Of a stretch of 64,000 nt of DNA, positions 14-45,725 are shown piece after piece; within the stretch, counting starts at the first letter, position 1, and every line of letters begins with the position of its first letter. The translations under genes were made by a program, and so were the position numbers. This DNA comes from a virus (Duplodnaviria > Heunggongvirae > Uroviricota > Caudoviricetes). The DNA lies in IMG/VR virus record IMGVR_UViG_3300032038_000047, positions 22,993-86,992 of that record; one strand, 5' to 3'. Under the pieces are notes generated by a model. The model did no database searches. It worked only from the letters and a program-made list of their open reading frames with translations, and was not told the DNA's origin.

Positions 14-3000
14 ATGTTCGTCAAGATTGGAGCCGCGCTGCTTCTTGTGGCGCTCGCCGTCGGGGTGCTATCTATTATTCCGACAGCCAGAATGGAACCG
101 GCTATGCGGGCGCTTGCTATATTCGCTGCTGTAGTTGGCGTTATTGTAGCTATTATTGTTGGGCTTGCTTCCCACATGAATTACGCCTCGTTTGAGTCAG
201 CAGCATCTGTTGTCAAAGCGGCGGGCAATGCCTTTGTAAAGATTGGGGCGGCTTTGCTTATCATGGCCCTCTCGATCGCTATCCTGTCAATTGTTCCTAC
301 CGACCAAATGCAGCCTGCGGCAATTGCACTTGGCATTCTTGCCGGCGTTATCGGAGCAATCATGATTGCTATCACGGCAATTGCAGCGCATTCTAACGGC
401 ACGAGCGATGTAGCAGCGTCTTTGACTGCGGCCAGTACCGGTTTCGTCAAAATGGCAGCAGCAATTCTGATCATTGCCGGAGCGATTGCGTTGCTATCCA
501 ATTTTGGCGGATCCAACATGCTGGCTGCAGCAGGAGTAATCGCCGGTTTAGCCGCCGGTCTTGGGATAATGATAGGCATCCTATCCACACTAGATGCCGA
601 CGGGCTACAGACTGCCGCACAGACGTTCATTCTGGCGGCAACAGCATTCTTAATTATTGCGGCAGCGGTTGTGGTCCTCGGCTATGCGATGTCGCAGTTT
701 GAATCAGTTGGTCAGTTTGCTCTGGCTATTTTCACACTGGTTGGGGCGCTTGTAGCCCTAATGGCTGTTGTTGGTGTTATCGCATTTCTTAGCACTCAGG
801 TTCCCGGACTCAGCATGGCTCTGAGCGCCGTTGCTGATATTCTGATGATCATTGCCATGGCGTTCCTGGCTGCCGGTGTTGGTGTGCTTGCATTTTCTGT
901 TGGTATTCAGTTGCTTGCCAACAACACGCAAGCAATCCCGGCGGTGCTTTCCGCCATTGGGCAAGGCCTCCATATGATGGCCACTTACATCAAAAACGAT
1001 AAGGGCGAACTTGCAATCTTTGCCCTTGTGTTGGCAGGTGTAGGTGTCGCCTGCGCTGGACTTGCAAAGCTTGTTGCAGCTCTGGCCCCTGTGTTCAGCA
1101 CATTTGTAGAGCAGCTTGGGACCATTCTTAACACAGTTGTTACCGCAGTTATCAATGGCGTAGATAAGCTGGTCACGGCAGTTGGTAACGGACTTGGCAA
1201 GCTAATCTCGTTAATCGGTAGCCATCTGCCATCCTTGAAAACACTTCTGATTGCTGGCGCTGCCCTGCTGATTACCGGGTTCCTTGAGTTTATAACTGGA
1301 GCCATGGGAGATCTGGTGAACAGTATTGTAAAGCTTCTCATTGTGGGTATCAATAGTATCTCTATTGCGATCATTGACAATGGGGAACAGATTGGCGCGG
1401 CAATCGGCAACTTGCTTGAAGCGCTTGGGCTGCTGGTCTTGAATGGGATTAAGGGCCTTCTTGAAAGTTGGAATATTCCGACTGGATGGATGGACGACAT
1501 GTTCAATCTTGACGGAGCAAACAGTCTCGTTCTTGGACATCTTCGTGAAAATAACGAGAAACTCAACAGTGAAGTCAAAGAGACCATGTCCGGCGTCGAA
1601 GAGACCGCAAAAAATGGGCTGAAGAGCATTGGTAACACTGTTGCTGATGGCGCTGACGGATTGTTTGGTAAAGCAGGGACCGTTGCGACCGATGATATTC
1701 ATTCTGCCGGCACTGCTGTAAAGAACGAGATCACCAAAACCGGCAAGGAAATCGATGAACTCAGGCAGGAGCAGTTTGACCGCAACCGGCGCAATACTGT
1801 AGATGCTATTGACAAAACTGGCGAAACAATCGAACGAAATGTCGACGGCAGCATTATTAAACCCGCCCAGAAGAAAGCAATGGAAGCGGCGGGATTGATT
1901 TCCGATGCCGGAACAGGCAGTATATCAGCGAAGATCAAAGAGCTCGGCCTGAACTACAAAGATATGCAGTCCTGGGCAAACGAGTACTTTGACGGCAACA
2001 TTCAGAAAGCCACCGAGTTTGCAGAGGCGCTGGACCGCCTTAACAGCAGTACCGAAGGGCTTAAATGGTGGGCTGACAATTACTTTAATGGTGATGTTTC
2101 TGCCGCTATGGAACAGGGCCTTGCCAACCTGCAAGCTACCGGAAAAGTAACGGCGGACAGTTGGGAAGAAGCCGCTAATAATCTCAAGGCCTACCGTGGA
2201 GAAGGCGCGGATATTTCCGACAGCGTTGCTTATGCCAATGCCGGTAAAGCGGACGGAGAGGCGTATGGTAACAACTTTATTGACGCCTTCCAGGGCCTCA
2301 TGGCAGGAGAAGGTATTTCCGGGAGTACCCTTCTTGGAGATATGGACATGGGCCAGCTGGGCGACATGCTCAGCGGTGCCGGACTAAGCTTTGACGCCGA
2401 CAGCCTGGACTTGTCCAATATCTCCGAGGTGCTAACCGAAAACGGCTTTGACCTCCCGCTTACAGGTGTGGATTTCTCAAATCTGTCGCTGGATGAACTC
2501 ATGGCGTATATGAGTGACGTCGGAACGGATGCTGGAGAAACCGCGGGCGAGGAAGCCGTCAACACCGCTGCAGAGAACATCGCCGGCAGTTCTGGAGAGT
2601 TGGCAGCAGCTACCAACGCCGCCGCGTCTGAGGCGACCGTAGAGAACATGGAAGCCATCAAGACCAGTGCGGAAGAAGCCACCGCTGCGGCAGAGACGGC
2701 AACCGCTGCTTCCGAAACAGCTACCGCTGCGGCAGAGACTGCAACTACAGCAATGGAAACGGAAGCTACCGCCGCACAAGGAACCCAGACCGCAGCTGAA
2801 GCGGCCATGGCTGCCATGGATACGGCATCTGAGCAAGCTGCGGTGTCCGGATCGGCTATGATGATGGCGTATATCAGCGGTATTAATAAAAACAGTTCTA
2901 TTGTTGTTACTACTGTAGCGAACGTCGCGCAGGCAGCCGTTAATAAGCTCTCAAGTTTCCGACAGAATTTCTACAACACTGGTTTGAATCTTGGTCAGGG

Positions 3001-3631
3001 ACTAATTGATGGTTTGCAGGCAAAACAAAGTGAGGCTGAAACTGCCGGATACAACTATGGTAAAGCAACCGCGGATGCAGTAGCGAGAGGTGCAGACACA
3101 GCATCTCCTTCTAAAGCAACAATGCTTACCGGTAAATACATTGGCGAGGGGCTTATCATTGGTATGCGGCGTATGGCATCAAACGTGTCTGCTACGGGAG
3201 AGAAAATCGGTTCTTTGGCCGTTAACGCCATGCAGTCGACCATTGAACGAATTCGCGGTATTATTGACGGGACACTTGAGGTCGACCCTACCATCCGTCC
3301 TGTTTTGGATATGTCAAATGTTACTGCCGGAGCAATGGCAATGAACGGGCTGTTTGGGAACCCGAGTATGTCGTTGTCCAGCGCAAACCTTAGTGCAATT
3401 CGGTCTTTGTCCGGTCTTTCTATTGGCTCACAGCCAGCCTCTGCAGTGGCCGGAAGCAACGCCGATATCATAAGCGCCATCCGCGAAATGAGAGGGGACA
3501 TTGATCAGCTCGGCGACCGCATCAGCCAAATGCGCATCGTGATGGACTCCGGCGAGCTTGTCGGATCTATCGGAACCAAAATGGACCGCCGGCTCGGTGA
3601 GATTGCCAAACACAAAAGTCGCGGTAACTAA
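14..3631 (+). CDS. Tail tape measure protein. The ORF is open to the window edge, so it is probably 5'-truncated
   Basis: 1205 aa. Hydrophobic TM-like segments at the N-terminus. Long Ala/Gly/Ile-rich low-complexity stretches and an internal ETATAA(A) tandem repeat region near nt 2690-2790. The position directly upstream of the Dit/Tal-like genes fits a siphovirus TMP. Confidence 0.8.
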   Translation: MFVKIGAALLLVALAVGVLSIIPTARMEPAMRALAIFAAVVGVIVAIIVGLASHMNYASFESAASVVKAAGNAFVKIGAALLIMALSIAILSIVPTDQMQPAAIALGILAGVIGAIMIAITAIAAHSNGTSDVAASLTAASTGFVKMAAAILIIAGAIALLSNFGGSNMLAAAGVIAGLAAGLGIMIGILSTLDADGLQTAAQTFILAATAFLIIAAAVVVLGYAMSQFESVGQFALAIFTLVGALVALMAVVGVIAFLSTQVPGLSMALSAVADILMIIAMAFLAAGVGVLAFSVGIQLLANNTQAIPAVLSAIGQGLHMMATYIKNDKGELAIFALVLAGVGVACAGLAKLVAALAPVFSTFVEQLGTILNTVVTAVINGVDKLVTAVGNGLGKLISLIGSHLPSLKTLLIAGAALLITGFLEFITGAMGDLVNSIVKLLIVGINSISIAIIDNGEQIGAAIGNLLEALGLLVLNGIKGLLESWNIPTGWMDDMFNLDGANSLVLGHLRENNEKLNSEVKETMSGVEETAKNGLKSIGNTVADGADGLFGKAGTVATDDIHSAGTAVKNEITKTGKEIDELRQEQFDRNRRNTVDAIDKTGETIERNVDGSIIKPAQKKAMEAAGLISDAGTGSISAKIKELGLNYKDMQSWANEYFDGNIQKATEFAEALDRLNSSTEGLKWWADNYFNGDVSAAMEQGLANLQATGKVTADSWEEAANNLKAYRGEGADISDSVAYANAGKADGEAYGNNFIDAFQGLMAGEGISGSTLLGDMDMGQLGDMLSGAGLSFDADSLDLSNISEVLTENGFDLPLTGVDFSNLSLDELMAYMSDVGTDAGETAGEEAVNTAAENIAGSSGELAAATNAAASEATVENMEAIKTSAEEATAAAETATAASETATAAAETATTAMETEATAAQGTQTAAEAAMAAMDTASEQAAVSGSAMMMAYISGINKNSSIVVTTVANVAQAAVNKLSSFRQNFYNTGLNLGQGLIDGLQAKQSEAETAGYNYGKATADAVARGADTASPSKATMLTGKYIGEGLIIGMRRMASNVSATGEKIGSLAVNAMQSTIERIRGIIDGTLEVDPTIRPVLDMSNVTAGAMAMNGLFGNPSMSLSSANLSAIRSLSGLSIGSQPASAVAGSNADIISAIREMRGDIDQLGDRISQMRIVMDSGELVGSIGTKMDRRLGEIAKHKSRGN

Positions 3632-11335: not shown

Positions 11336-12886
11336 ATGAGCATTTCTAAAATTATCAACATTGCCCTGGCTGAGGTCGGCTACGTGGAGAAGGCCTCTAA
11401 CAGCAGCCTTTATGATAAGAAAGCAAACCCGGGCAGCGCCAACTGGACCAAATACGGCGCATGGTACGGGCTTAACGGACCCGGTGCACCCTGGTGTGAC
11501 ATGCTCGTCTCCTGGTGCGCGGAACAGGCTGGGGAGGCATCTGCTGTTGGACGGTTCTCCTATGTGCCCTATCACGCGAAGTTCTTCCAGGAGAGAGGGC
11601 AGTATTTCGCAAGAGGAGAAAAGCTGCCGCAGGCCGGAGACGTGATATTCTTCCGGGAGTTCGAGCATATCGGCTTGGTAGAGTATTGCGACGGGACCTA
11701 TGTATATACCATTGAGGGCAATACTTCCGACGGTGATACGCTGGACCCCAATGGCGGCGCGGTTTGCCGGAAGTGCTATTCTCTCGACAGCGTGTATATT
11801 CAGGGCTATGGCCGGCCGGACTATCAGGAAGACGATGAAAAAGAGGAGGAAGCAACTACAGTGAGCACAAAGGTTTTGGGTATCGACGTCAGCGAGCACA
11901 ATGGAACAATCAATTGGACAGCCGTCAAGCAGGCTGGTGTGGAGTTTGCCATCATTCGGACTGGTTACGGCAAGTCTTATGTGGATTCTCAGTTCAAGCG
12001 GAACATTACGCAGGCCATTGCCCAGGGAATTCACGTGGGCGTTTATCACTTCACCTATGCTCTGGATGCGGCGGGTGTCAAACGGGAAGCGGAGTTTGTG
12101 CTCTCCCTCCTGAAAGACTACAAGATTGACCTGCCCGTGTTCTTTGACTTTGAGTATGATACGGTCCGTTATGCCAAAGAAAACGGCGTGACTCTTGGAC
12201 GGCAGGCTTTCCTGGACCACACCAAGGCTTTCTGCGATGTCATTGAGGCCGCGGGATATCGGGCCGGTACTTATTACAATTACAGCTACTACAAGCAGTA
12301 CTATGACAAGAATACCCTCGGCTCCTACGTCCAGTGGTATGCTCAGTACAATGCCACCGCCGACATCTCCGGCTGGGACATTTGGCAGTATAGCTCTAAG
12401 GGCACCCTCTCCGGCTGCACGGGCCATTTCGACATGAATGAGATGACCAGAGAAACTTTTGAGAAGCTGACCAACTTCAAAATGGCAGGCTGGCAGAAGG
12501 ATTCTAACGGCTGGTGGTATCGCTATGAAGACGGAAGTTATCCGAAGGCAGCACTGGCGGGCATTGACGGCTGCTGGTATTACTTCGATGACGACGGGTA
12601 CCTGGTGCAGAACGCCTCCTGGAGCTACAACGGCGTGCTGTATACGGCCGACAATGACGGGAAAGTAACATTTGAGGAGGAGAACGCTGTGAAAGAGGAG
12701 AAGTATTACGAGAAGCTCGGCGACCTGCCTGCCCACTATCGGACAGAGATTGATAAGCTGGTCGCTGCCGGGTTCCTGAGGGGCAAGAGCGGTGAGGGTG
12801 ATAGCATGGTGCTGGATCTCCATGAAGAGGCCGTTCGGAGTCTGGTTGTTCTGGCAAGAGTCGCTGCACAGAACGGGCTGATTTAA
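11336..12886 (+). CDS. Endolysin with CHAP peptidase, GH25 muramidase and cell-wall-binding repeat domains
   Basis: The N-terminus carries a CHAP-like Cys/His pair ('...APWCDMLVSWCA...FEHIGLVEY'). The middle is GH25 lysozyme-like ('GIDVSEHNGTINWTAVKQAGVEFAIIRTGYG'). The C-terminus has aromatic W/Y-rich repeats ('GWQKDSNGWWYRYEDGSY', 'GIDGCWYYFDDDGYLV') like clostridial/choline-type cell-wall-binding repeats. Confidence 0.85.
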   Translation: MSISKIINIALAEVGYVEKASNSSLYDKKANPGSANWTKYGAWYGLNGPGAPWCDMLVSWCAEQAGEASAVGRFSYVPYHAKFFQERGQYFARGEKLPQAGDVIFFREFEHIGLVEYCDGTYVYTIEGNTSDGDTLDPNGGAVCRKCYSLDSVYIQGYGRPDYQEDDEKEEEATTVSTKVLGIDVSEHNGTINWTAVKQAGVEFAIIRTGYGKSYVDSQFKRNITQAIAQGIHVGVYHFTYALDAAGVKREAEFVLSLLKDYKIDLPVFFDFEYDTVRYAKENGVTLGRQAFLDHTKAFCDVIEAAGYRAGTYYNYSYYKQYYDKNTLGSYVQWYAQYNATADISGWDIWQYSSKGTLSGCTGHFDMNEMTRETFEKLTNFKMAGWQKDSNGWWYRYEDGSYPKAALAGIDGCWYYFDDDGYLVQNASWSYNGVLYTADNDGKVTFEEENAVKEEKYYEKLGDLPAHYRTEIDKLVAAGFLRGKSGEGDSMVLDLHEEAVRSLVVLARVAAQNGLI

Positions 12887-13709: not shown

Positions 13710-14323
13710 TAATGTCCGATTCTCATGTAGAGGAATACCTTAAGAAACTAAACGGTCAGGATGTCGATATCTCCTTTGAGCCGCAAAGTAATGTCGAGCT
13801 GTATCTCGCTAAAATGAACGGCATGAATGTACAGCTGCCGCCTGAGCCAGAAAGCAGAGTCGAGGCGCTTCTTGCCGACTATATTGAGTCTGGCGGGGGA
13901 GATACCGCCCCATCTATAACTCGAATCACAACAGCTTTTCGGAATTTTGATAGTGCACAATATATGAATACATATGGGATTGATGCCTTAACGTCATACT
14001 CGTTTGTCCCTATTGTTAATTATTTTGTGTCTTTGGGTACTACCGAAAATGAAGCAAAAATATGTACAGCGATTCTTGCGCTCATCTCTTGTCTTACGGA
14101 TTGTGAACATCTTCGTACGCAGCAACTTCAACAATACGTTATGAATTTCAAATCGGTAGTAAGCGATAATGTTATTGATGGCTATTTAGAGTCCATTCGT
14201 GGGTTCATTAAAACAAGCGACATCGCGTGGACTTATTTATGCGGTGCTGGAGATGCTCCAATTTGCGCAGAGCTAGCCGATGTAATTATATACACAGCTT
14301 CTCTATCAATCAATGATACTTAA
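13706..14323 (+). CDS. Hypothetical protein
   Basis: 205 aa ORF overlapping the previous stop, with an AGGAGG RBS. Confidence 0.45.
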   Translation: MIMSDSHVEEYLKKLNGQDVDISFEPQSNVELYLAKMNGMNVQLPPEPESRVEALLADYIESGGGDTAPSITRITTAFRNFDSAQYMNTYGIDALTSYSFVPIVNYFVSLGTTENEAKICTAILALISCLTDCEHLRTQQLQQYVMNFKSVVSDNVIDGYLESIRGFIKTSDIAWTYLCGAGDAPICAELADVIIYTASLSINDT

Positions 14324-14339
14324 GGGATGGTGTTTCAAC

Positions 14340-14666
14340 ATGACTAAATTTACAAAAGATTGGGCGACTGCAGCGCTGATCAGAGCTGCTAGAAGCTTTG
14401 CACAGGTGGCCTTGGGCGGCATCACCGTTGGGGCTGCACTGGATGAAGTAAATTGGATTCGTATCTTTTCCGTAGCCGCCGTTGCCGCAATCTATTCTAT
14501 TCTGACCAGCGTTGTTACAGGCTTGCCTGAAGCTAAAACTGACGGCACACTGATCGTCGACGACACGAATGGAGACACCACCAACTATCTCTTCCAGGTG
14601 GAGACACCGCTGGATGAGATGCAGACTAAGAAATCTGTACGGATGAACGTGGAGGTGCACAAATGA
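14340..14666 (+). CDS. Holin, phage LL-H family
   Basis: The N-terminus 'MTKFTKDWATAALIRAARSFAQVALGGITVG...' matches the Holin_LLH pattern (MxKFLKD..IRA.RT.AQTALA). There are two hydrophobic segments and the protein is about 108 aa. Confidence 0.75.
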   Translation: MTKFTKDWATAALIRAARSFAQVALGGITVGAALDEVNWIRIFSVAAVAAIYSILTSVVTGLPEAKTDGTLIVDDTNGDTTNYLFQVETPLDEMQTKKSVRMNVEVHK

Positions 14667-16547: not shown

Positions 16548-17324
16548 GAGTTCCAGATTGATTGTTTCTCCCTCCTCTCTCTAACATAGAGTTATATGGA
16601 AACGGGCGTATGTAAGTGTGGTGCCCGGACAATCGCAGTGTATCATATCTGAGAACGGCGGTCAATGAGCAGAGTTACCAAATCGTGCCATAATGGGGGA
16701 GGGGTCCTTAACGGGCTCCTCCCTTCGCATGTTTTACAACTGGTATTCTTTTTTGTTGAGCGTACCGTTTATGGAACTCTCGGTATGTTAGGATTCGATT
16801 GACAGCAACTTTTACAATGCCTATAATGGAAAGGAGGTGAGTGCGATGGTATACTTGACCGCACGTAACGATAAGCAGTTGGGTATCTGTTTACGAATGC
16901 TGTATTCGGAAAGCGTGGAATTTAAAGTTGAGGTTATCATGAATGATCGTGATAAAATCGAATTCCGCGTGTATCCAATGCTCGATGAAATTCGTATTCC
17001 AGATATTATGCGTCGTTACGAGATCATGATATCGTAGTCCATCATTCCTAACGGGTTAAAGGTCGTGAATCACATGGCCTTTAACTCTTGCAAAAGAAGC
17101 AAGGAGATGCATGATGCAAATACTGACTAAAATAATAGAGCCATACCGGCTTTCTGATGGTTCATGGAAAGTAAGGCTTATTGAACGGATGGAAGAGTAT
17201 CCGGTTGATAAGGAGCGAGACTTCGGATACTGTAATGTATGCGGCGACAAACGATATCCCGAGTGCATTGATGGGTGCATTCACAGGCGCGGTATTCCGC
17301 TAAAAGAGGGATGGGATGTCTGAA

Positions 17325-17352
17325 TCCGCAAAAATTGCAACTGCTATAATGG
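17325..17352 (+). promoter_or_regulatory. Copy of the phage-specific promoter motif that drives the tRNA-like small RNA
   Basis: TCCGCAAAAATTGCAACTGCTATAATGG, with TATAAT at 17345-17350. Confidence 0.5.
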
Positions 17353-17420
17353 AAAGAATGTAGTTTAATTGGTAAAACGCTACTTAGAGATGGAGGTTCA
17401 ACCCCTCCCATTCTTTTTTC
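17353..17420 (+). ncRNA. tRNA-like small RNA with acceptor stem, D-arm and T-arm but a truncated anticodon region
   Basis: AAGAATG pairs with CATTCTT as a 7-bp acceptor stem. There is U8 and a D-arm GTTT-AATTGGTA-AAAC. The T-arm GGAGG-TTCAACC-CCTCC is followed by TTTTTT. Only 12 nt remain where the anticodon arm and variable loop should be. Confidence 0.4.
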
Positions 17421-17789
17421 GTTTTGTCCGCAAATTTTACAGCCTCCTAGATGGAATAAACTATTAGGAGGTATGTGTATGTTCATAGATATTCTGATCG
17501 TGGTGCTTTGCATCGTGGTGGTCAAGAACATATTGGCGAAGTACATGTAAGCGAACGTGATATTCAGACTGGAAGGGTCCTGCGGGGCCTTTCCTTTTTA
17601 CAACGACTTTTCTTTTTTTTGAAATCGCAAAAATTCCCGGGTGGGGTTTTCCGAAAAAACAATTCTGAACTGGAGTTCATACTGTCCTTAGTATATGCCA
17701 TGAAATGTGCCACGGTGTTTACAGCCCTTGTGATACCAATGGGTTTGTAAAATAGAGAGAGTTTTCGAATCCCTCTCTCTCCGCCACTG

Positions 17790-17823
17790 GCCTCCCCTTG
17801 TGGGAGGCCTTTTTTGCGTTTTA
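17790..17823 (+). terminator. Rho-independent terminator
   Basis: GGCCTCCCC-TTGT-GGGAGGCC followed by TTTTTTG. Confidence 0.55.
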
Positions 17824-17967
17824 CCACGGTTTTACCCTGTTTTTGCAACTTATTTATGAGACTGAATTACCATATATTAGGCGCAAAACCCATGTTTGAT
17901 ACCCTCATATGCCACGAAATGTGACACGAGACCCCGAAAAATATGACACGAAAATCTGTCAAAAAGT

Positions 17968-19038
17968 TCAGACTTCTCCGGATTCTGATTTTTCATCTTT
18001 CAGCAGCTCAGCGAAGTACCGCTCAATTTCTGCATTTACCGCCTCTCTTTTTGCATCTGTGGTATGCTGGTAGATCCGTTTTAGAGTCTGGATCGACGAC
18101 CACCCGCCACGCTCCATGGCGTATTTGTCCGGAGTGCCGAGTTCCAACATGATAGAGGCGTTCTGATGCCGGAGGTCGTGCAAGCGCATATGCGGAAGCC
18201 CCTCCTCTTTACAGATCAGAGTGAGCCGCTTGCTTAGTGTGTTGGCGTGGACGTTGCAGAAAGGGATATTCCGTGTTACACACTCATCCAGTTTCAAAGC
18301 GAGATACGCAGGAACTGGGAGTGTACGCTTGGATTTCCTGGTTTTTGTAGTTTTGACCACAAACTCATGGTTCTCATTTGGGACTTTGGCCTTTGTTACG
18401 TGCAGGAGCTGCTTCTCGGAGTCCCAGTCACTATGCTCTAGCGCCAGTATTTCTGATCTGCGCAGCCCGAGGAACATCGCCAGCAGGACCGGAACCTCGA
18501 TGGATTCCCCATCCACTGCTCTGATCAGTTTTGCGCACTGGTCTTTATCCAGGATATTTCCCTCGAAATCCTCTGCTTGCGGCAGTGTGGCACGGATCTG
18601 GCGGCCACAGAACTGCTTTATTACTGCTGACAGAAGCCCTTTGACATTCGCAACGGTTTTGGGGCCGCTGGTCTTTGCCTCACGATTGATTGCCACCTGG
18701 GCTACATTATCGGTGATATTTCGGAGTTGCATGAGCATTTCCGGCTGCAGGTGGTTTTTCTTGATGTTTTTGTAGCCTCTGATCGTGGATGGGGACAACA
18801 CGTTGCTTTTCATGTTAATATATTTGGTGATGGCTTCTTCCAGAGTCATGGTGGATTGGTCGAGAATGGTTTCATGGTGCCGCTGGGCTAATTCACTGGC
18901 CAGGCGGATGCACTCATATTTATCAGGGCTGGTAACGCTCTGGTAGACGCTCTTTCCATTTTCGTCTTTTCCAAGATACACACGAAGTCTCCAGGTTCCT
19001 GATGGTAGTTGCGTTGGGTTCATGATATCTGCCTCCAT
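17968..19038 (-). CDS. int: Tyrosine-type site-specific integrase
   Basis: C-terminal catalytic region 'HMRLHDLRHQNASIMLELGTP...ERGGWSSIQTL.RIYQHT' carries the R..HxxR..Y signature of tyrosine recombinases. The N-terminal SAM-like/core-binding region is present. Confidence 0.85.
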   Translation of the reverse strand: MEADIMNPTQLPSGTWRLRVYLGKDENGKSVYQSVTSPDKYECIRLASELAQRHHETILDQSTMTLEEAITKYINMKSNVLSPSTIRGYKNIKKNHLQPEMLMQLRNITDNVAQVAINREAKTSGPKTVANVKGLLSAVIKQFCGRQIRATLPQAEDFEGNILDKDQCAKLIRAVDGESIEVPVLLAMFLGLRRSEILALEHSDWDSEKQLLHVTKAKVPNENHEFVVKTTKTRKSKRTLPVPAYLALKLDECVTRNIPFCNVHANTLSKRLTLICKEEGLPHMRLHDLRHQNASIMLELGTPDKYAMERGGWSSIQTLKRIYQHTTDAKREAVNAEIERYFAELLKDEKSESGEV

Positions 19039-19904: not shown

Positions 19905-19932
19905 TCCGCAAAAATTACAAGTTCTATAATGG
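19905..19932 (+). promoter_or_regulatory. Phage-specific promoter motif with a downstream UACG-loop hairpin
   Basis: TCCGCAAAAATTACAAGTTCTATAATGG is followed by GAACC-TACG-GGTTC and TATATATTTTTT at 19932-19957. Confidence 0.5.
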
Positions 19933-20029
19933 AACCTACGGGTTCTATATATTTTTTGCAGGAGGTAACGTTGTGGTCAGCTTGACAAGAAAGGCTGGAA
20001 TCAGTATAGTGAGAAAGGAGGGAGGTGCC

Positions 20030-22871: not shown

Positions 22872-23034
22872 TATGGGTGTTTTCAAGGATATTATGACTG
22901 ATCTGATGGACCATGAGGACGAGGTTGAGCTTCTCACCGGCGTCATGCCAGAGGATCTTCCGGACTACTTTGACACGAAGGAAATCACAGACCTTTGGCA
23001 GACAATTCAAAAGATTGAGGTGAAACGGTTTTGA
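22872..23034 (+). CDS. Small acidic hypothetical protein (53 aa)
   Basis: ATG 8 nt after the GGGAGG of the AATTCAAAATGGGAGG element. Confidence 0.35.
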
Positions 23035-27131: not shown

Positions 27132-27261
27132 GATACCGGAGAACAGAGGGGGCTCTTAACAGGGCCTCTCTTTTTATTATGTCAACCAATCCGCAAAAAT
27201 TACAAGTACTATAATGGAACCTACGGGTTCTGATATTTTTCTTTTGAAAGGAGATTTCGCC

Positions 27262-29548: not shown

Positions 29549-29610
29549 ATCCGCAAAAATTACAAGTTCTATAATGGAACCTACGGGTTCTGTATATTTT
29601 TTCTGAAAGG

Positions 29611-43426: not shown

Positions 43427-43654
43427 ATGACAGTATTTATATTTCTGCTGCGGTGGCTGAGCAACATAGCGGACCGCGCCAATTTCGGAAAATTTTCCGA
43501 GGGGGATCTTCTGGAAATCCAAACGTTTCAGGCAGTGCTGCTTGAGAGCACAAACCGCGGTGATATTTCCAGTCAGACCCGAACAGACCTGTGGAACCTG
43601 GCAGACATTGTCCGGGAGCAAATTCGCAAACAAGTGAGAGAGGTGGATGCGTAA
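43427..43654 (+). CDS. Small hypothetical protein
   Basis: 75 aa ORF. Confidence 0.35.
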   Translation: MTVFIFLLRWLSNIADRANFGKFSEGDLLEIQTFQAVLLESTNRGDISSQTRTDLWNLADIVREQIRKQVREVDA

Positions 43655-45651: not shown

Positions 45652-45725
45652 TATTCTGAGATAGGTATGGTATGATGCCATTGTCAGTAAAATCTGCAAC
45701 CTCTATAATGGAAAGGAGGACCATT

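Follow-up and report, generated by a model that had tools for sequence, protein, structure and literature searches.

Among tRNA-shaped RNAs that do not decode, the closest described parallels to the element analysed here are mascRNA of MALAT1 and the t-elements of plant mitochondria: neither encodes a CCA, and in both RNase P and RNase Z recognise the acceptor stem, the T-arm and the elbow (PMC1920247; PMC4919913). RNase P, RNase Z and the CCA-adding enzyme gauge the stack of acceptor stem and T-arm from the elbow, and a CCA is an antideterminant for RNase Z (PMC4919913). The element lies in a 64,000-nt stretch of DNA (positions 22,993 to 86,992 of IMG/VR virus record IMGVR_UViG_3300032038_000047; hereafter the window) that belongs to a temperate siphovirus-like phage of a Firmicute. 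Here, positions 17354..17416 of the + strand, between the lysis genes and the integrase gene, hold a 63-nt gene for a tRNA-like RNA that lacks an anticodon arm. A reading from the sequence alone (the original prediction) had described a promoter-driven, tRNA-like mini-RNA and offered three interpretations, namely a degraded phage tRNA, a tRNA-mimic small RNA or the tRNA-derived core of the phage attachment site (attP). We propose that the element is probably a stand-alone gene for a selected, non-decoding, tRNA-shaped small RNA that would be matured by tRNA-processing enzymes.

The element shares the fold of mascRNA and the t-elements, a tRNA-like body with an elbow and without CCA. Those RNAs are eukaryotic or organellar processing signals at the ends of long transcripts, whereas the element is phage-borne and has its own promoter motif 3 nt upstream; moreover, mascRNA keeps a small anticodon-like arm where the phage element has only a stub. 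The vtRNAs (TMERs) of Gammaherpesvirus 68, the tRNA-Other of B. cereus and the irregular tRNAs near toxin-antitoxin loci are likewise tRNA-like, undergo tRNA-style processing and are not, or not normally, used in translation (PMC5389517). Unlike the element they keep the anticodon arm and belong to other hosts or contexts, and no sequence relationship between them and the element was found. Decoding tRNAs by which phages counter tRNA-targeting defences, such as the tRNA-Tyr of T5 against retron/PtuAB, are also phage-encoded and offer a plausible arms-race context, yet they are full tRNAs that take the place of cleaved host ones in translation, whereas the element has no anticodon loop (PMC11555353). 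Phage decoding tRNAs often stand in arrays, and such arrays hold 28 of 70 members of the class described below.

The tRNA-like domain of transfer-messenger RNA (tmRNA) resembles the element in having an acceptor stem and a T-arm but no anticodon arm. tmRNA is processed by RNase P and is characterised by a G3:U70 pair for alanyl-tRNA synthetase, a reduced, stemless D-loop and a long mRNA-like domain with pseudoknots. The element, in contrast, has G:C at position 3:70, a true D-stem and 63 nt without any insert, and ARAGORN finds no tmRNA. In the bacterial Y RNA YrlA a long Ro-binding helix, built by the 5' and 3' ends of the RNA, carries the tRNA-like domain as an insert; the termini of the element pair only as the 7-bp acceptor stem, with the promoter motif 3 nt upstream and a T-run directly after. 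Rfam gives no Y RNA match for the element, and its best match within the Rfam clan is tRNA. We place it among the known tRNA-like non-coding RNAs and do not rate it as categorically new. For phage tRNA-like genes without an anticodon arm we found no prior description in the literature searched, in which subscription journals were thinly covered.

Results

Fold of the Element

The element reads AAGAATG-TA-GTTT-AATTGGTA-AAAC-G-CTACTTAG-AGAT-GGAGG-TTCAACC-CCTCC-CATTCTT-T, followed by TTT. Its first segment, AAGAATG (17354-17360), forms a perfect 7-bp acceptor stem with CATTCTT (17409-17415). After T8 and A9 (17361-17362) follows the D-arm (17363-17378), in which GTTT (17363-17366) and AAAC (17375-17378) pair over 4 bp around the 8-nt D-loop AATTGGTA (17367-17374) with G18 and G19. 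G26 (17379), an 8-nt remnant stub CTACTTAG (17380-17387) and a 4-nt variable loop AGAT (17388-17391) lead to the T-arm (17392-17408), with a 5-bp stem of GGAGG (17392-17396) and CCTCC (17404-17408) and the T-loop TTCAACC (17397-17403), which provides T54, T55, C56, A57 and A58. The discriminator is T (17416), and no CCA is encoded. A15 and T48 are both present, the variable loop is compatible with an A15/U48 contact, and the G53-C61 pair is kept. All parts that build the elbow and the upper half of a tRNA are retained.

The connector between D-stem and T-stem thus counts 13 nt (G26, the 8-nt remnant and the 4-nt variable loop), compared to the 22-23 nt that position 26, the anticodon arm and the variable loop occupy in tRNAs; the 12 nt given originally hold if position 26 is left out. 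The three arms, G18 G19, T54 T55 C56, A58 and the score of a canonical decoding tRNA are all found, whereas the 5-bp anticodon arm with its 7-nt loop is absent and CTACTTAG stands in place of 17 nt. Since the anticodon arm is reduced to a stub of 2-3 bp, the element cannot read a codon.

The covariance models agree with this anatomy, so that the fold claimed in the original prediction is borne out. The Rfam tRNA model (RF00005) scores the element at 52.1 bits against a gathering score of 29 (E = 2.7e-8 for the whole 64-kb window), in an alignment that spans model positions 1-71 with the anticodon arm shrunk to CUA-CU-UAG. In Rfam 15 only tRNA exceeds its gathering score at the element; weak sub-threshold matches occur nearby, none overlapping it. 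A second covariance model, R1, was constructed from 20 unrelated elements of the same design, the window not being among its seeds, and yields 47.2 bits (E about 5e-14). ARAGORN calls no tRNA and no tmRNA anywhere in the window.

Promoter Motif and Cassette

The promoter copy ahead of the element is real as well. The motif TTGCAACTGCTATAATGG (with up to 3 mismatches) occurs 9 times in the window, always on the + strand, where 0.06 copies are expected. It ends in CTATAATGG, reads aTCCGCAAAAATTACAAnnnCTATAATGG with its flanks and sits upstream of genes; it is also given as the TATAATGG motif. The copy concerned, TGAATCCGCAAAAATTGCAACTGCTATAATGG (17321..17352, +), is conserved upstream of the element in the related loci L006, L176, L025 and L047. 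Its -10-like TATAAT (17345-17350, +) ends 3 nt before the acceptor stem, not about 7 nt as first stated. Downstream, a terminator-like run of six T (17414-17419, +) starts within the last part of the acceptor stem, takes in the discriminator and likely serves as a weak terminator and 3' trailer; a T-run follows the element in the same four loci. The right boundary is formed by a second, degenerate promoter copy, TCCGCAAATTTTACAGCCTCCTAGATGG (17427..17454, +), which is the sole copy in the element-less relative L175 and appears to drive the downstream peptide gene. Promoter motif, element and T-run together make up a cassette of about 95 bp in the cargo position between lysis genes and attP.

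At other copies of the motif functional elements likewise start 2-4 nt past TATAAT, as with the Shine-Dalgarno sequences located 2-4 nt after TATAAT at 45694 and 46003, and transcription would thus seem to start unusually close to the hexamer. The host sigma-A polymerase usually starts 6-8 nt after TATAAT, and a transcript with that spacing would lose the first 2-4 nt of the acceptor strand. A single-subunit phage RNA polymerase, as a possible cause of a close start, was not recognised among the large open reading frames (ORFs) tested against Pfam. Three further copies of the motif (19915-19960, 27200-27245 and 29560-29605) carry the same small hairpin and T-run, GGAACCTACGGGTTCTATATATTTTTT, 2 nt past TATAAT and ahead of the Shine-Dalgarno sequence of each gene; this hairpin might stabilise the 5' end of the transcript or act near the promoter as an attenuator or terminator.

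Relatives of the Cassette

No close DNA relative of a 2.3-kb query around the element was found among GenBank phages, and the exact pattern of the element is unmatched in IMG/VR. In L006, whose integrase is 97% identical, the element has four changes, all compatible with the structure: C25 to T, giving a G-U pair, A57 to G and the remainder within the stub. The cassette is almost unchanged in L176/L177 (only A57 to G), where the upstream gene is merely 65% identical. L175 has an upstream gene of 80% identity and a homologous peptide gene and lacks exactly the first promoter copy and the element. Because L006 and L176/L177 have the unit and L175 is without it, the segment of about 95 bp is an autonomous insertion/deletion cassette.

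More distant versions are found in L025 and L047, two contigs from rumen metagenomes, in which a homologous promoter motif, a gap of 3-4 nt, a tRNA-like element and a T-run follow each other. The motif common to the distant cassettes is AATCCGCA..TTTTACA..TAATG, and the AATCCGCA segment is present in L025. Acceptor stems, T-stems and stubs of both all differ from those of the window and are all still paired: the 5' acceptor strand is AAGAATG in the window, GAAATGA in L025 and GGAATGA in L047, the 5' strand of the T-stem is GGAGG, GTTGG and GCAGG, and the stub is CTA/TAG, CAC/GTG and CGA/TCG, respectively. All three elements score between 45 and 49 bits with R1.

A Phage-Borne Class

To define the class we required intact acceptor, D- and T-arms and at most about 20 nt between D-stem and T-stem, and scanned for two common phage D-arm patterns in combination with a shortened connector and a T-loop. 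The AT-rich D-arm pattern returned 8 loci in IMG/VR viral contigs, 27 in metagenome contigs and 6 in 596 Gb of bacterial and archaeal genomes, 3 of the latter being convincing; the GCTCAGTTGGTAGAGC pattern returned 62 loci with 49 distinct elements in IMG/VR viral contigs. In total, more than 100 distinct elements of this design were found, almost all phage-borne. With its 13-nt connector, R1 match, 15/48 match and lack of CCA, the element of the window belongs to this class. R1 matches normal tRNAs too, and it is thus connector length that separates the class. The D-arm GTTTAATTGGTAAAAC was considered as a class signature and rejected, normal tRNAs with GTTTAATTGGTAAAAC being abundant (at least 120 phage loci); truncated elements are even commoner with the GCTCAGTTGGTAGAGC D-arm than with GTTTAATTGGTAAAAC.

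Several properties recur across the class. Perfect 7-bp acceptor stems are present in 20/26 and 36/49 distinct elements of two element sets, and position 48 matches position 15 in 64 of 65 elements. Among 49 elements the connector length peaks at 8 nt (18/49), which corresponds to position 26, 2 nt and a 5-nt variable loop, and the lower bound at this length is sharp, a single element being shorter though 4-7 nt were permitted. Connectors of 11-20 nt form a stub right after position 26, mostly capped by a tetraloop such as GAAA or UUCG; stub pairing totals 70 bp versus 42.5 +/- 5.2 in shuffles, the maximum of 2000 shuffles being 63. An encoded CCA is rare (4/70 across the class): it is found in 4/65 elements versus 39/72 normal tRNAs (p = 3.5e-10) and, within the same loci, in 3/30 elements versus 50/111 canonical tRNAs (p = 2.7e-4). 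Position 26 is a purine in 17/40 elements versus 20/22 normal tRNAs. In an alignment of 20 members, with seeds pre-filtered for pairing, 98.4% of the stem cells are paired and the covariation score is 0.90 versus 0.215 in shuffles. No aminoacylation identity, such as G3:U70 or a common discriminator, is shared across the class.

Out of 70 distinct elements tested with ARAGORN none is called. A canonical tRNA lies within 1 kb of 28 of them, and 40 are in loci without any canonical tRNA. One of the matches in bacterial genomes lies on L170 (JAEEHF010000033.1, 27 kb). This contig, labelled as a metagenome-assembled genome of Bacillota, holds 21 canonical tRNAs within 8 kb as well as one anticodon-arm-less element (2996-3055, minus strand), and seems to be phage DNA that was binned as bacterial. 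In L198, and identically in L210, positions 1866-1903 match the abiF RNA motif (RF03085, 39.9 bits, threshold 37). This hairpin is located just past the stop codon of a gene and 5 nt upstream of a 57-nt anticodon-arm-less element; it may represent an antitoxin-like RNA of the phage joined to a tRNA-like processing signal, unless the match is fortuitous.

Elements in Cultured Phages

BLAST against GenBank phages identified 30 records of the Lactococcus P335 group with the design, all unannotated, including ul36, P335, TP712, bIL286, bIL309 and 63301. TP712 is the resident prophage of the laboratory strain L. lactis MG1363. The lactococcal elements score 38-39 bits with Rfam and 46-51 bits with R1 and are located between the lysis module and attP/int. 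Both ul36 (NC_004066, 207-267) and TP712 (AY766464, 41947-42007) have the element after the lysin and cargo genes, and in ul36 the integrase gene also follows closely, an arrangement like that of the window. When seven of these phages are aligned, about 58 of 61 element columns show no variation, whereas at least four unrelated types of downstream flank and two types of upstream flank occur, the latter each with a TATAAT-like promoter. By this comparison the element appears as an island of conservation between mosaic flanks.

In five of the seven phages the element is preceded by a TGnTATAAT promoter and a conserved leader of about 100 nt (66-206 in the ul36 locus, L240; 2375-2493 in the TP712 locus, L241). 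This leader contains crossing inverted repeats, GTGGATG with CATCCAT (CATCCAC in TP712) and GATAATCTGCAG with CTACAGATTATC; bIL286 and bIL309 have a short hairpin in its place.

Outside the lactococcal group, Polaribacter phage Danklef_1 carries a 58-nt element (43546-43603) that reaches 73.1 bits with R1. Its annotation, "tRNA-OTHER, Undet (NNN)", marks an element of the same kind but is a mere pipeline label, and the Danklef paper does not discuss it (PMC8776804).

Genomic Context

The locus is ordered as tail genes, endolysin, holin, small genes, element, peptide gene, attP and integrase. The endolysin (11336-12886) has GH25, CHAP and choline-binding parts, the holin is encoded at 14313-14666, and a tyrosine integrase is read from the minus strand (17968-19038). 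The attP core, TTCGAATCCCTCTCTCTCCGCCA (17764-17786), is common to the att regions of the L007 and L011 integrases and corresponds to the 3' end of another tRNA with discriminator G, presumably tRNA-Ser as judged from such acceptor ends; it is located 350 bp downstream of the element. A terminator after the core (17789-17809) would be available to the reconstituted tRNA. The orientation of the core with respect to the integrase gene is opposite to that in L007 and L011. Arm-type repeats ATATGCCAYGAAATGTGMCACG at 17693-17714, 17907-17928 and 17941-17953 flank this core and not the element.

With core and arm repeats thus placed between 17693 and 17953, the element is not the attP core, and this part of the original prediction is refuted. 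Neither the 3' end of the target tRNA, nor the common att sequence, nor the flanking repeats coincide with it, and L175 has no element at all. The integrase relatives L001-L005 in IMG/VR and L007, L010 and L011 (61-65% identity) have no tRNA-like element either, which excludes it from the int/att module. Between the D-arm segment TGGTAAAACGC (17370-17380) and GCGTTTTACCA (17816-17826) on the right side of attP there is perfect complementarity over 11 nt, of which about 0.06 cases are expected by chance in the region as a rough estimate; it is not preserved in L006 and is therefore probably coincidental. L006 (7696-8917) and L007 (8205-9611) encode a reverse transcriptase (RVT_1) behind an Rfam RT-18 RNA motif (67.6 and 44.8 bits, respectively), about 1-2.5 kb from the element position; the window has neither.

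The peptide gene (17479-17550, +) encodes 23 codons of a hydrophobic product, MFIDILIVVLCIVVVKNILAKYM. Its leader (17427-17478) includes its own degenerate promoter and a strong Shine-Dalgarno sequence, TAGGAGG (17465-17471), and a terminator follows at 17571-17594. CCTCCTA (17443-17449) overlaps the -10-like box and could sequester TAGGAGG; the homologue in L175, MIMDLLIVVICVSIILKVIDKYK, has a covarying anti-Shine-Dalgarno/Shine-Dalgarno pair, CTTCCAAGAT/ATCTGGAGG. No PHROG matches the peptide, which has the look of a type I toxin or of a small membrane peptide.

Discussion

The element has the anatomy of a tRNA body without the decoding half, stands in a compact cassette, is conserved and belongs to a widespread phage-borne class. 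The retained parts are those that RNase P, RNase Z and the CCA-adding enzyme measure, and for this reason we favour a selected, tRNA-shaped RNA matured by the tRNA machinery. The tRNA-mimic interpretation of the original prediction is thereby the one favoured by the comparative evidence. For the lineage of the window the dedicated promoter motif, the T-run and the absence from L175 argue that the RNA itself would be the product and not a signal in cis.

The copy of the phage promoter motif ahead of the element would drive its transcription, with read-through from the late operon as a possible additional source of the RNA. RNase P would set the 5' end, as expected from its established activity on tRNA bodies, while the 3' end would be made by RNase Z or exonucleases, given the absence of an encoded CCA and the U-run that follows; CCA may then be added. 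The product might accumulate as a stable tRNA body of which the acceptor/elbow surface acts on a tRNA-binding factor. Our best guess, and a speculative one, is a decoy or competitor against a host toxin, nuclease or defence system that targets tRNAs.

A number of observations weigh against a selected RNA product. Thermodynamic folding of the element is unremarkable (z = -1.15), and by energy an alternative central pairing (-13.1 kcal/mol) is more stable than the cloverleaf (-10.8 kcal/mol), at the expense of the D-arm; this alternative pairs the D region with the remnant and is not conserved in the homologue L025. Between the window and L006 identity is about 94% in element and flanks alike. 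Descent from different parent tRNAs accounts for part of the stem covariation. Truncated forms make up about 2% of the R1 matches in 100 phage loci, and a strict parse finds 2 among 522 other tRNA-like genes. No recurring protein family or partner emerges from 984 ORFs around 70 elements, and, the acceptor sequences and discriminators being heterogeneous, the sequences of the elements reveal neither a common aminoacylation identity nor a specific partner. Finally, if the start followed sigma-A spacing, transcription of the full element would demand read-through or an atypically close start.

A serious rival, even if we judge it unlikely, is that the element acts in cis as a processing, termination or insulator module similar to the t-elements or MALAT1-mascRNA. 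The fold would then exist to be cut by RNase P and RNase Z, the cuts defining the 3' end of an upstream RNA (the late operon or a leader small RNA) and the next 5' end, with the tRNA-like piece as by-product. Such a module needs exactly the acceptor, T-arm and elbow that are retained and gains from the absence of CCA (PMC4919913). Heterogeneous acceptor sequences suit a role in which only shape counts, and the location at the end of the late/lysis region, the leader of about 100 nt between promoter and element in five of seven lactococcal phages (with a short hairpin in the other two) and the abiF-motif hairpin 5 nt upstream in L198/L210 all fit. In the window, L006, L176, L025 and L047, however, the promoter ends 3-4 nt before the element and a T-run follows, which leaves practically no RNA on the upstream side to be matured, and a separate promoter serves the next gene. 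In addition, L175 has the same flanking genes without the element, and the 28 of 70 elements inside tRNA arrays would provide superfluous punctuation there.

We consider it rather improbable that the element is a decaying pseudogene, the functionless remnant of a phage tRNA gene that lost its anticodon hairpin by deletion. The element clearly derives from a tRNA, and hairpins are prone to deletion. Phages often have normal tRNAs with this D-arm (at least 120 loci) and only seldom truncated forms among their tRNA-like genes, and in close relatives conservation of the element does not exceed that of its flanks. Decay would, however, not be expected to leave the cassettes of L025 and L047 with every stem compensated, a sharp instead of uniform distribution of connector lengths, tetraloop-capped stubs beyond chance, or CCA depletion versus tRNAs of the same genomes despite intact stems. 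Moreover, 40 of 70 elements are in loci without a canonical tRNA, and the lactococcal element is nearly invariant in about 30 records with mosaic flanks. The degraded tRNA of the original prediction is consequently disfavoured by the compensated L025/L047 cassettes, the differences in CCA and position 26 and the lactococcal island of conservation.

A role at the level of DNA, as a part of attP (a secondary core or accessory-factor site) or as a recombination-promoting linker at a mosaic module junction, is very improbable. In its favour, the element lies near attP/int in the window and in the lactococcal P335 phages, is found in the latter exactly where the flanks switch between unrelated types, and has a cassette delimited by two repeats of the promoter motif. 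Against it, the core and the arm repeats of attP map to other positions, L007, L010, L011 and L175 do without the element, the majority of the class lies away from integrases without any integrase family reappearing nearby, and a linker would not need compensated RNA stems.

Returning to the selected, non-decoding RNA as the preferred explanation, the class can be captured by a simple annotation rule, a match to the tRNA model with a D-to-T connector of at most 20 nt. ARAGORN misses all 70 elements tested, and GenBank leaves members of the class unannotated or as "tRNA-OTHER/Undet". The same design is present in the genetically tractable Lactococcus P335 phages ul36, P335 and TP712, in which expression, processing and partners are therefore directly testable.

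Current thinking sees phage tRNA genes mostly as aids to codon usage or as substitutes for tRNAs that host immunity has destroyed. Phage genes restricted to the non-decoding half of a tRNA are widespread and point to a further use of the tRNA shape. It is conceivable, though we hold it doubtful, that anticodon-less tRNA bodies form a small-RNA class of their own in phages of many lineages, in which, being uncleavable and non-decoding, they would serve as decoys for, or inhibitors of, host factors with affinity for the acceptor and elbow of tRNAs. Candidate targets would then be tRNA-targeting defence nucleases and toxins that act on the acceptor end, and temperate phages of Firmicutes may carry such decoys as promoter-equipped cargo cassettes between their lysis genes and attP.

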